DNA from: Oscillospiraceae bacterium
GTDB lineage: Bacteria > Bacillota > Clostridia > Oscillospirales > CAG-272
Reading direction: 5' to 3'
Length of the DNA stretch: 64,000 bases
Assembly: GCA_015064095.1 (NCBI GenBank)
Contig: SVSW01000001.1
Location: 64,709 to 128,708 of the forward strand
The notes below the pieces were generated by a model that was not told the origin of the DNA, did no database searches, and was given only the letters and a program-made list of their open reading frames with translations. The position numbers and the translations under genes were made by a program. Positions 4,527 through 7,121 of the stretch are shown piece by piece (the stretch's first letter is position 1; each line of letters opens with the position of its first letter).

Positions 4527-4560
4527 AAGAGATCCCTGCATTTGCAGGGATCTCTTTTAT
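4527..4560. terminator. bidirectional intrinsic terminator
   Basis: A perfect hairpin AGAGATCCCTGCA/TGCAGGGATCTCT is flanked by A-run and T-run sequences. It sits between the convergent genes ending at 4526 and 4557. Confidence 0.75.
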
Positions 4561-6827
4561 TTATTGCTTTGTTTACGCAGCTCGCTGCGGCGGATCTTTC
4601 CGCTGACCGTCTTCGGCATCTCATCGAGGAACTCAACGATCCTCGGATATTTATAGGGTGCTGTATGTGATTTAACGTACTCCTGAATTTCTTTTTTCAG
4701 TGCGTCCGTTCCCTCTTTTCCCTTGACAAGAACAACGCTCGCCTTGACGACCTGACCGCGTACCGGATCGGGCGCGGCAGTAACGGCACATTCAAGCACA
4801 TAGGGCAGCTCCATGATAACGCTCTCGATCTCGAACGGTCCTATGCGATAGCCCGACGACTTGATAAGATCGTCCGTACGTCCGACATAGTGGAAATACC
4901 CGTCCTCATCGCGCCATGCGGTGTCGCCCGTATGATAATAACCTCCGTACCAAGCCTCGTCCGTGTGCTCTTTATCATTATAATATCCGATAAACAGACC
5001 CGGCGTTTTGCCAAGCTCTGTTTTGATGCAGATCTCACCGGTATCACCGTCCGCGACCTCATTGCCGTCACCGTCAATAAGATGAACGTCATAAAGCGGC
5101 GAGGGCTTGCCCATCGAGCCGGGCTTCGGCGTCATGCCGACGAAGTTTCCGACGATAACGGTCGATTCCGTCTGTCCGAATGCTTCCATAAGCGCAAGGC
5201 CGGTGGCACGCTTCCACTGCTCATAGACCTCCGGATTGAGCGCTTCTCCTGCGATAGTTGAATATTTGATCGAAGAAAGATCATATTTCGAAAGATCTTC
5301 CTTTATAAAGAATCTGTACATTGTCGGCGGTGCACAGAAGGTCGTTATACCGTATTTTGCGAACATCGGAAGGATATCGTCCGCATGGAAGCGGTCGAAA
5401 TCGTATACGAAAAGTCCGCCCTCGCAGAACCACTGCCCGTAAAGCTTACCCCACATTGCCTTTGCCCAGCCGGTATCGGAGATCGTCAGATGCAGGCCGT
5501 TCGGGTCAACATTGTGCCAAAAATGCGCCGTCGGATAGTGCCCGAGCGGATATTTGTGTGAGTGAACGGCGATCTTCGGATAACCCGTTGTGCCCGAGGT
5601 AAAATACATCAAAAGAGGATCGTCCCCACCGACAGGTACGCGCTCGAGCTTTGAGCGGAACATCGGCAGCTCGGCATCAAAATCGTGCCAACCCTCGCGC
5701 GAGCCGTTGACTATTATTTTCGTCTTGACCGTGGGTGATTTTTCGAGTGCAAGCTCGATCTGATGTGCCACGTCGCCGTCCGCGGTCGCAACGACGGCCG
5801 AAACGCCTGCGGCGTTAAAGCGATACTCAAAATCGTGTTCAACGAGCTGATTCGTTGCGGGGATCGCTATCGCGCCGAGCTTGTTGAGCGCCATCATTGA
5901 GAACCAGAACTGATAGTGGCGCTTGAGAACGAGCAGAACGCGATCGCCCTTGCCTATGCCGAGCGAACGGAAATAGTTAGCCGTTCTGTTCGATTCGCGG
6001 CTTATATCGTCAAATGTAAATCGGCGCTCCTTTTTATCGCTCGAAATATGAAGCAGCGCGAGCTTTTCGGGCTTCTTTTTGGCTATCTCGTCGACAACAT
6101 CATACGCAAAATTAAAGTTATCGATATTTTTAAAGCCGATTCCGTTGAAAATGCCGTTTTCGTCCGTCTTTGTTTCGATGAACTTCTCTGCAACGGGTGC
6201 GATCGGCGCAACTGCTGCCGGCTTTATCGAATGGTCAAAGACAGATCGCTCATCGCCCTTAACAACGATCGCATAAAACTCGCAATCATCGCCGCCCGTG
6301 GCGATCATGCCGTGAGGCTCGGAGCTGTTGTAAAGCGCGGTATCTCCGGGGCGGAGTATCTCCGTAATACCTCCGACGACGAGCTTGAGCGCGCCCTTTA
6401 CGACTATATCTATCTCCTGACCTGCGTGAGTTGAGAGCTTGATCGGGTTTCTCTGCTCCTCCTCGCTGTATGCCGCACGAACAAGGAACGGCTCGGCGAT
6501 CTTGTCACGGAAAAGAGGGGCAAGGCTGGTGTAATCGAACTCCGAACGGCGATCGACCAACGTTCCGTTTCCTGCGCGAACGACCGATAGCGTGCGAAGA
6601 TTAGGGCTCTTACCCTCGATAATATCGCTGACGTCAACACCGAAGCGCAGAGCGCATTTATGTATAAATGAAATACTGAGGTCGACCTCTCCCGCCTCGC
6701 AGGCAAGATACCTCTCGGTGGTCAGACCCGTTTCGACCGCCATCTGCTCGGGCGTGATGTCGAGTATCTCGCGCATATCCCTTATTCTTTCGGGTATTTG
6801 GCGAATTTTACTGCTGTTTAAATCCAT
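4557..6827 (-). CDS. fusion protein: N-terminal XRE-type HTH + cupin domain, C-terminal AMP-forming acyl-CoA synthetase (medium-chain/ACSM-like), copy 1
   Basis: ORF 4557..6851. I set the start at MDLNSSKIRQ (ATG 6825-6827), which has a GGAAGGAG RBS. The N-terminus has an HTH (ITPEQMAVETGLTTERYLACEAGE) and a cupin (GQEIDIVVKGALKLVV..PGDTALYNSSEPHG). The C-terminus has the adenylate-forming motifs YFTSGTTGYPK, GQTE, YHTGD, GRTDDLIKSSGYRIGPFEIE and SGKIRR. Confidence 0.85.
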   Translation of the reverse strand: MDLNSSKIRQIPERIRDMREILDITPEQMAVETGLTTERYLACEAGEVDLSISFIHKCALRFGVDVSDIIEGKSPNLRTLSVVRAGNGTLVDRRSEFDYTSLAPLFRDKIAEPFLVRAAYSEEEQRNPIKLSTHAGQEIDIVVKGALKLVVGGITEILRPGDTALYNSSEPHGMIATGGDDCEFYAIVVKGDERSVFDHSIKPAAVAPIAPVAEKFIETKTDENGIFNGIGFKNIDNFNFAYDVVDEIAKKKPEKLALLHISSDKKERRFTFDDISRESNRTANYFRSLGIGKGDRVLLVLKRHYQFWFSMMALNKLGAIAIPATNQLVEHDFEYRFNAAGVSAVVATADGDVAHQIELALEKSPTVKTKIIVNGSREGWHDFDAELPMFRSKLERVPVGGDDPLLMYFTSGTTGYPKIAVHSHKYPLGHYPTAHFWHNVDPNGLHLTISDTGWAKAMWGKLYGQWFCEGGLFVYDFDRFHADDILPMFAKYGITTFCAPPTMYRFFIKEDLSKYDLSSIKYSTIAGEALNPEVYEQWKRATGLALMEAFGQTESTVIVGNFVGMTPKPGSMGKPSPLYDVHLIDGDGNEVADGDTGEICIKTELGKTPGLFIGYYNDKEHTDEAWYGGYYHTGDTAWRDEDGYFHYVGRTDDLIKSSGYRIGPFEIESVIMELPYVLECAVTAAPDPVRGQVVKASVVLVKGKEGTDALKKEIQEYVKSHTAPYKYPRIVEFLDEMPKTVSGKIRRSELRKQSNK

Positions 6828-7086
6828 TTTTTTACTCCTTCCGGAAAACAAAAAATCTCAAGGAAGATCCTTGAGACGGAAAATATCCGCGGTACCACTC
6901 AAATTGCACAAAGTGCCACTCATACTCTAATAAGTATTTAACCTTAACGCGGCATACGGACGAACCTACTTATTTTCAGCCCGCCGACTCAAAAGCGACA
7001 GCCCCCGGATTACTCCCTACGCGCTTACACCGACCGCGCGCTCTCTTTGAGGTTTTTACCCGTGACCTTCTTTATCACAGTCATTG
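6828..7086 (-). promoter_or_regulatory. T-box riboswitch leader (probable Val/GUC specifier) with intrinsic terminator
   Basis: Read on the minus strand, the leader contains, in order:
- K-turn UGAC-UGU-GA-UAAAG / CUUUU-GA-GUCG
- AG bulge AGAGA and distal loop CGGUCGGUGUAAG
- F-box-like GCGUUA
- T-box core AAUUUGAGUGGUACCGCGG (6887-6905)
- terminator UCUCAAGGA-ucu-UCCUUGAGA-U6 (6850-6877)

UUGAG in the T-box can pair with CUCAA in the terminator arm, which would form the antiterminator. Confidence 0.8.
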
Positions 7087-7092
7087 GAATTG

Positions 7093-7121
7093 AGTATATC
7101 ACATTTTTTTACTCTTGTCAA
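7093..7121 (-). promoter_or_regulatory. sigma-A-type promoter for the T-box leader / copy-1 gene
   Basis: The minus strand reads TTGACA (7116-7121), a 17-nt spacer, then TATACT (7093-7098). Confidence 0.6.

Follow-up and report, generated by a model that had tools for sequence, protein, structure and literature searches.

A 64,000-nucleotide stretch of the genome of an Oscillospiraceae bacterium (assembly GCA_015064095.1, contig SVSW01000001.1, positions 64,709 to 128,708), referred to below as the window and numbered from its own first letter, carries on its minus strand a gene for a fusion of a helix-turn-helix (HTH)-like/cupin module with an AMP-forming acyl-CoA synthetase (4557..6827; copy 1), and this gene is preceded by a T-box leader. 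Here, we report that the leader has, judged by its sequence, the valine codon GUC as its specifier, and we consider it likely that it controls a short branched-chain acyl-CoA synthetase acting in the salvage of isobutyrate to valine, while a paralog in the same window (copy 2), led by an isoleucine T-box, would serve the route from 2-methylbutyrate to isoleucine. As a riboswitch, the leader conforms to the textbook type of T-box; the novelty lies in the class of its targets, namely branched-acid synthetases, accompanied in relatives by 2-oxoisovalerate:ferredoxin oxidoreductase (VOR) and IlvE. No link of a T-box to acyl-CoA synthetases or to VOR was found in the full-text literature searched and in two surveys of T-box regulons.

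It is an old observation that fibre-degrading Clostridia of the rumen and gut depend on isobutyrate and 2-methylbutyrate, or make use of them, and that they build valine and isoleucine from these acids. In the literature searched, neither the genes involved nor their regulation had been identified. The specifier codon acts as a built-in label of the amino acid which each synthetase paralog serves, and synteny adds the ferredoxin, VOR and IlvE to the set, which together provide gene candidates for branched-acid dependence, relevant to feed supplementation of ruminants and to cross-feeding of amino acids in the gut. The family also amounts to a natural experiment: on at least two occasions, the specifier changed by one base together with a Gly/Ala exchange in the enzyme. 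It should thus be of interest to rumen and gut microbiologists, as well as to anyone who infers gene functions from T-box specifiers.

In the mechanism we propose, transcription would start at the promoter at 7121-7093. While tRNA-Val is mostly charged, the terminator (stem 6877-6855 and the U-run) would form and the transcript would stop before the gene. The anticodon of uncharged tRNA-Val would pair with GUC in Stem I, with the tRNA elbow stacking on the platform made of the AG bulge and the distal loop; its free ACCA end would then pair with the UGGU bulge, stabilising the antiterminator UUGAG...CUCAA and allowing read-through. The enzyme made in this way would convert isobutyrate, ATP and CoA to isobutyryl-CoA, VOR would carboxylate it reductively to 2-oxoisovalerate, and IlvE would transaminate the latter to valine. 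Copy 2 (34607-36901) would do the same for 2-methylbutyrate and isoleucine under its AUC T-box. The parts which we infer are the substrates, the direction of flux, the response to tRNA and the occurrence of VOR and IlvE genes in the host genome. The RNA elements, the specifier, their conservation, the operons which join the synthetase to VOR and IlvE in relatives, and the coupling of the specifier to residue 455 of the enzyme were computed from the sequences, and are presented below.

T-box leaders and their specifier codons

The Rfam covariance model of T-box leaders (RF00230) matched the window at 7087..6869 on the minus strand over its full length (model positions 1-219), with 105.8 bits at a gathering score of 93 (E 2.4e-22). 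In the whole 64 kb there are two T-box matches only, this leader of copy 1 (6869..7087) and the leader of copy 2. About 6 nt upstream of the match start lies a sigma-70-type promoter, TTGACA-17-TATACT with a TG extension (7093..7121, minus strand), which the consensus scan recovered with 11 of 12 matches and which had been proposed at this place in the original prediction, made from the DNA letters alone. Stem I, with its K-turn, specifier loop, AG bulge and distal loop, spans 6985..7083 (minus strand) according to the model alignment and to covariation in RNAalifold. The GA/K-turn halves, the AGAGA bulge, the distal loop GGUCGGUGUAAG, the CGUUA motif and the T-box sequence AAUUUGAGUGGUACCGCGG all fall at conserved positions of the RF00230 model, so that the ordered series of elements predicted earlier is confirmed at a score above the gathering threshold. 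The T-box sequence itself lies at 6887..6905 (minus strand), with the UGGU bulge at 6897-6894.

Further downstream, the terminator scan found an intrinsic terminator (6845..6877, minus strand), composed of a 10-bp stem (6877-6855) and the run UUUUUUGUUUU. Its stem and U-run fold with -13.3 kcal/mol (z -4.2 in comparison to shuffled sequences). When the 3' arm of the terminator is omitted, the minimum-energy fold becomes the antiterminator, UUGAG...CUCAA around the UGGUACC bulge. The segment CUCAAGG is the 5' arm of the terminator and is also used by the antiterminator, thus the two structures compete, as had been anticipated. The leader ends with a ribosome-binding site, AAGGAG (6835..6840, minus strand; read from the sequence), 8 nt before the ATG at 6827. 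We conclude that the copy 1 leader is a canonical class I transcription-attenuation T-box. It has the element order of the class I transcriptional leaders of Bacillus subtilis tyrS and glyQS (K-turn, specifier loop, AG bulge, distal loop), and likewise a Stem III, a T-box with a UGGN bulge, a competing terminator and antiterminator, and a U-run. It differs from them in what it precedes: targets of class I T-boxes are normally aminoacyl-tRNA synthetases, genes of de novo biosynthesis and transporters, whereas here the target is an acyl-CoA synthetase.

The RF00230 alignment places GUC, a valine codon, in the specifier columns (6997..6999, minus strand). It is followed by G6996 and by CUUU of the basal helix (6995-6992), which pairs in the same alignment with the AAAG that comes after the 5' half of the K-turn. 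In both window copies the triplet precedes a purine (GUC then G in copy 1, AUC then A in copy 2), but among relatives this base is sometimes C. We then used an alignment of 64 Stem I sequences, consisting of 62 from homologous loci and of the two window copies, whose rows were added by hand. RNAalifold found compensatory changes in 19 of the 20 pairs, the level of pairing across Stem I cells was 92.5% versus 30-47% when the partners were slid by 1-3 columns, and the observed covariation score was reached by none of 500 shuffles. The 62 locus sequences were selected by the 4-bp basal helix, hence the 100% pairing of that helix is in part a consequence of the selection, which did not involve the other four helices. 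In these aligned relatives the specifier column holds GTA, GTC or ATC, with a single base between it and the basal helix. GUN/AUC is the sole frame that gives sense codons consistently: the nucleotide preceding the triplet differs from leader to leader, and a shift by +1 would give the stops UAG or UAA in leaders with GUA.

The valine specifier proposed in the original prediction is therefore borne out, both by the RF00230 alignment and by the covarying alignment of 64 sequences. The specifier loop of copy 1, C-U-G-U-C-G, formally contains other triplets, but there is next to no probability that the specifier is misassigned and that another tRNA is sensed through the overlapping CUG, UGU or UCG, given the placing of GUC by the covariance model, the restriction of the column to GTA, GTC and ATC beside a covarying basal helix, and the variable base and the stops met by the overlapping readings. 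The UGGU bulge had also been taken as a sign of tRNA-Val through its discriminator base A73. It does fit A73, and tRNA-Val(UAC) on a related Ruminococcus contig ends in ...CCCC-A-CCA, i.e., with A73; however, since Ile-type leaders carry UGGU as well, the bulge is not diagnostic of tRNA-Val.

The second copy of the gene, which had been expected, was found at 34607..36901 (minus strand). It encodes 764 amino acids with the same architecture and 60% identity to copy 1, and has Gly at the position equivalent to 455 (Ile type). Its leader (36952..37169, minus strand) appears from the alignment to read isoleucine, with AUC at 37082-37080, and is preceded by the promoter TTGACA-17-TATAAT (37205-37177, minus strand). 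The RF00230 score of this leader is 84.5 bits (E 7e-17), below the gathering score of 93, and annotation based on the Rfam threshold would miss it. An open reading frame (ORF) of 758 aa at 9400-11676 was considered as copy 2 and rejected, as Pfam assigns it to NAGLU-family glycosidases.

Specifiers, residue 455 and operons in related loci

A protein search for the fusion returned at least 8000 matches, all with E <= 1e-50. We analysed 80 loci (designated by L numbers) out of more than 600 stretches in species-representative genomes, and all 80 hosts are gut or rumen Clostridia (Ruminococcus, Oscillospiraceae, Acutalibacteraceae, Christensenellaceae). The T-box core TGGTACCGCG, invariant in related leaders, was present upstream of 71 of the 80 homologs; it was not found in L053, L054, L063, L071 and L080 despite ample upstream DNA. 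At the gathering threshold, Rfam recovered only 4 T-boxes in 16 loci, of which 11 have the core upstream of the gene, and for this reason we turned to the motif combined with a Stem I profile. The profile hidden Markov model gave 109 Stem I copies in the loci and the window, with ATC in the specifier column of 61, GTA in 28, GTC in 5, CTC in 4 and ATT in one, while 10 were partial matches. Those who rely on annotation should be warned that these proteins carry the labels 'AMP-binding protein' or 'acetyl-CoA synthetase', and that many of the T-boxes stay below the Rfam threshold.

Each Stem I match was paired with the ORF directly downstream, which yielded 88 full-length synthetases. These T-box-led genes read only Val (GUA/GUC) or Ile (AUC), and the specifier is accompanied by a particular residue of the enzyme. 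At position 455, in the motif SDTGW-x-K, all 60 genes under an Ile T-box encode Gly, and 27 of the 28 under a Val T-box encode Ala; in copy 1 the motif is SDTGW-A-K, with the Ala455 codon at 5463..5465 (minus strand). In a tree of the N-terminal module the Val genes form one large clade and a separate small one, and the latter, comprising copy 1 of the window and L001, branches from within the Ile-type genes, which means that the switch from Ile to Val took place at least twice, each time with G455A. Copy 1 thus seems to descend from an Ile-type gene by a change of specifier, a single base from AUC to GUC, together with the replacement of Gly455 by Ala. Further residues are convergent in both Val lineages, namely M458, S555, I558 and G560. 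They flank GW-x-K and the QTE motif, beside the Gly that replaces the pocket Trp of Acs. The 2-methylbutyrate enzyme of PDB entry 3ETC has the Ile-type residue at every one of positions 455, 458, 555, 558 and 560, while 8BIQ, a 4-hydroxybutyrate-CoA ligase and thus an enzyme of a C4 acid, has Ala at 455. A bulkier residue is what would be expected for a smaller acid.

The genomic context of the two types differs as well. Among the 22 Val-type genes that could be evaluated, 19 have the gene of a P-loop protein and the beginning of an oxidoreductase cluster directly downstream, in comparison to 0 of 50 Ile-type genes; the other contexts of Val-type genes amount to 3 cases, and L001 is among the loci without a VOR link. 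The order within the cluster is a P-loop protein (220 aa, CbiA/MinD-like), a ferredoxin (68 aa, two [4Fe-4S]), a VorB-type alpha subunit, beta and gamma subunits, and then IlvE. The alpha subunit matches NF005507, '3-methyl-2-oxobutanoate dehydrogenase subunit VorB', with 548 bits (cutoff 399), and IlvE (NF009897, 492 bits, cutoff 307) is present in the cluster at 14 loci. The whole series occurs in L061, where a LeuA-like gene with a Leu T-box comes next. In 18 tandem loci an Ile T-box and its synthetase gene precede a Val T-box and its synthetase gene, always in this order. It appears from gene order and family assignment that the cluster is a gene set for turning isobutyrate into valine (activation, reductive carboxylation, transamination), put under a valine-starvation switch.

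This chemistry is not new in itself. Allison, Bryant and co-workers reportedly described rumen anaerobes that carboxylate branched volatile fatty acids reductively to form branched-chain amino acids. The route predicted here is the same as the classical one (acid to acyl-CoA, to 2-oxoacid by a ferredoxin oxidoreductase, to amino acid) and the hosts are alike, i.e., rumen and gut Clostridia including Ruminococcus. The classical work was physiological and enzymological, whereas the present analysis adds candidate genes, operons, tRNA-sensing control and a paralog for each amino acid.

In relation to copy 1 itself, a number of observations weigh against the proposed salvage role. The original prediction had assigned it to the route from isobutyrate to valine, and this is well supported comparatively, by 3ETC, MbcS and the VOR-IlvE operons of relatives, but no vor, ilvE or ilv gene is present in the 64-kb window. 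Nor does the window hold a tRNA-Val gene, its sole tRNA being tRNA-Ser(UGA). Copy 1 is followed by a bidirectional terminator hairpin with a 19-bp stem (4521..4562, both strands), common to it and a convergent M23 peptidase gene, and hence it is monocistronic; it also belongs to the minor Val lineage, which at the loci seen is without the VOR link. The best NCBIfam model for its product, MbcS (NF047394), is matched with 448 bits, below the equivalog cutoff of 850. Residue 455 may correspond to the first acetate-pocket residue of Acs (Val310 of the Val310/Thr311 pair of the Salmonella enzyme), and would then line the acyl pocket. By parsimony, only 2-3 independent switches stand behind the association of residue 455 with the specifier. 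The one Val gene without Ala455, in L069, has a catalytic N-domain 100% identical to that of its Ile-controlled neighbour, so the specificity need not differ between the copies everywhere; the identity suggests gene conversion or assembly collapse.

The last two points, together with the breadth of MbcS and of the Methanosarcina enzyme, each of which takes several branched acids (PMC10026030, PMC10455477), would agree with a different explanation, in which both paralogs have a broad specificity for isobutyrate and 2-methylbutyrate, only the regulation is specific for the amino acid, and residue 455 is a marker of lineage. We regard this as unlikely, though not to be neglected. The association is nearly perfect and is found again, along with the convergent residues 458, 555, 558 and 560, in each of the two Val lineages, which are separate; at all of these positions 3ETC, an enzyme that prefers 2-methylbutyrate, has the residue of the Ile type; and a recent gene conversion or an assembly collapse is a possible source of the L069 identity.

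It is quite improbable that the branched acyl-CoA made by the enzyme primes the synthesis of branched-chain fatty acids for membrane lipids, the role which MbcS, the best-matching NCBIfam model, has in Staphylococcus aureus by feeding FabH-primed synthesis (PMC10026030, PMC11167679). The position of copy 1 away from VOR and IlvE in the window would be in line with such a role. However, control by the charging of tRNA-Val or tRNA-Ile is sensible for the supply of amino acids and not for that of lipid primers, in relatives the Val-type gene adjoins the genes for VorB-type subunits and IlvE and runs in their direction, and the Leu T-box with its LeuA-like gene comes after the synthetase-VOR-IlvE operon. 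We thus retain the salvage of branched acids to valine and isoleucine as the likely function of the two genes.

No synthetase under a Leu specifier was found among the 80 loci, and the four CUC T-boxes precede LeuA-like genes; the lack of a Leu/isovalerate class fits the poor use of isovalerate by MbcS (PMC10026030). CUC leaders were observed in L019 (~9824-9996), L061 (~15616-15778), L072 and L079 (both ~4640-4810, minus strand) and L038 (250-350). The LeuA-like gene has HMGL-like and LeuA_dimer domains, remains below the NCBIfam cutoffs for 2-isopropylmalate synthase, and adjoins the synthetase-VOR-IlvE operon. It is followed by an uncharacterised ORF, 630 aa long in L019 and at least 329 aa in L061, where the locus ends and where the ORF has no NCBIfam match. 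The P-loop protein, 220-230 aa long, is always encoded after the Val-type synthetase and before the ferredoxin and VOR (24 loci; e.g., L061 10792-11487, L019 5367-6029, L006 10259-10924), and has a weak match to the Fe-S carrier MrpORP. Finally, a Ruminococcus clade has the same fusion without a T-box (L063 ~1450-1560, L071 ~5990-6100, L080 ~7850-7960). There, a short conserved leader, ATGTAAGC(A/T)C, or ATCTAAGCAC in L080, comes right after the -10 box, and may be a different control element.

The synthetase and its N-terminal module

The copy 1 protein, Val type, has 756 aa according to its translation, and starts at the ATG at 6827, with AAGGAG 8 nt upstream, rather than at the TTG at 6851. 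Pfam finds Cupin_2 at residues 131-187 (6267..6437, minus strand; 38.9 bits, cutoff 27.2), the AMP-binding (ANL) N-terminal catalytic domain at residues 246-616 (4980..6092, minus strand; 214 bits) and AMP-binding_C at residues 666-744 (4596..4832, minus strand; 78.9 bits). The HTH part of the fusion was less clear: the XRE/HTH-like helical region at residues 13-73 (6609..6791, minus strand) matches HTH_19 with 20.4 bits, below the cutoff of 30.2. Of the fusion described in the original prediction, the cupin and both synthetase domains are therefore above threshold, and the HTH is not.

The catalytic part aligns with 3ETC, its nearest relative of known structure, over residues 236-753 without large gaps (E 2e-189). 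3ETC is the Methanosarcina acetivorans enzyme MacsMa, for which 2-methylbutyrate is the preferred substrate, and in which Gly replaces the pocket Trp of Acs and Trp259 serves instead (PMC10455477). W437 of copy 1, invariant in the family, aligns with this Trp259, and G551 in the FGQTE motif probably corresponds to the Gly in place of Acs Trp414, as mapped by the QTE motif and not by an Acs alignment. MacsMa thus shares with copy 1 the Gly-for-Trp replacement and the alternative Trp. The archaeal enzyme is without the HTH-like/cupin extension and without a T-box, and carries the Ile-type Gly455 and Thr555, where copy 1 has Ala455, Met458, Ser555, Ile558 and Gly560.

The score against NF047394 makes copy 1 an MbcS relative, not an MbcS equivalog. 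MbcS of S. aureus activates 2-methylbutyrate and isobutyrate, isovalerate hardly and acetate not at all (PMC10026030), and supplies FabH-primed fatty-acid synthesis (PMC10026030, PMC11167679). Its substrate range parallels the restriction of the specifiers to Val and Ile, but MbcS has a fatty-acid role, no N-terminal module and no known T-box. The most likely substrate of copy 1 would be isobutyrate.

In the N-terminal module, HTH_3 and HTH_19 are matched above the Pfam threshold in many relatives, and a family profile of residues 1-230 (6138-6827) matched structures of XRE HTH proteins (434 repressor, SinR, PezA), the HTH_3-cupin regulator 1Y9Q (E 3e-10) and HppE (1ZZ6; E 3e-7), the match to HppE spanning both subdomains. 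The 230 residues differ from 1Y9Q and HppE, both HTH_3-cupin proteins, in being fused to an adenylate-forming enzyme and in the acidic character of the helical part. HTH-like residues 5-72 are acidic in all 80 sequences, with a median isoelectric point of 4.5 and a net charge of -6, and the recognition-helix region (residues 30-50) has a net charge of -4 across these sequences. With charge taken as a proxy, this argues against DNA binding, and the HTH-like region is probably not a DNA-binding domain. In the cupin, H134, E138 and H172 are invariant in 81 sequences. HppE binds iron through an H-x3-E...H triad, and its helical domain is not known to bind DNA.

Between paralogs of the same genome, the module is the most diverged part: its identity is 35-56%, compared with 63-100% for the synthetase N-domain and 57-98% for the C-domain. 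Convergent changes of the Val lineages were also found inside the module, at positions 43, 50 and 70. Both observations fit a sensor which is specific for each paralog. As a tentative idea, with a rather low probability of being correct, we suggest that the module, instead of being a relic of an HTH regulator, is an HppE-like metal-binding cupin sensor giving a paralog-specific allosteric input to the synthetase; it could, for example, bind the 2-oxoacid or the amino acid of the pathway and throttle the enzyme. If so, the supply would be controlled twice with the same specificity, through tRNA charging at the level of RNA and through a metabolite at the level of protein. It is highly improbable that the protein is instead a bifunctional trigger enzyme of the BirA kind, whose HTH-cupin part binds DNA and regulates transcription in response to the substrate or the product, with the T-box as a second layer. 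Such a function would accord with the profile matches to XRE repressors and 1Y9Q and with the HTH_3 and HTH_19 matches of relatives, but not with the acidic charge of the region in 80 of 80 sequences, the sub-threshold HTH match of copy 1 and the match of the module profile to an enzyme, HppE, across both subdomains.

In tandem pairs other than L069 (genes at 5290-7614 and 7959-10262) the catalytic N-domains are 63-82% identical. The C-domains are 87-98% identical in 9 of the 10 pairs, which points to gene conversion from one copy to the other.

Other features of the window

The gene for the CCA-adding enzyme (7160-8482) ends ~40 nt upstream of the promoter of the copy 1 T-box. On the other side, just past the convergent M23 peptidase gene, genes for citrate synthase (2139-3518) and aconitase (215-2173) lie on the minus strand. 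A match to BSnc120, a Brucella small RNA, at 4495-4574 (plus strand) scored 34.6 bits versus 114 and was rejected as a chance match to the terminator hairpin.

A serine acetyltransferase-like gene adjoins cysS at 53636-55832 (plus strand). This arrangement is often under T-box control in Firmicutes, but no T-box was detected at these genes even at E 0.01. Downstream of an ABC-2 transporter cluster, two ORFs come one after the other, the first of 941 aa (45529-48354) and the second at 48373-51999 (plus strand). Neither has a confident Pfam match, and the former shows a sub-threshold match to DUF4340 only. Opposite the second of them, at 48397-51981 on the minus strand, the same 3.6 kb holds another ORF, both being ~1200 codons long.

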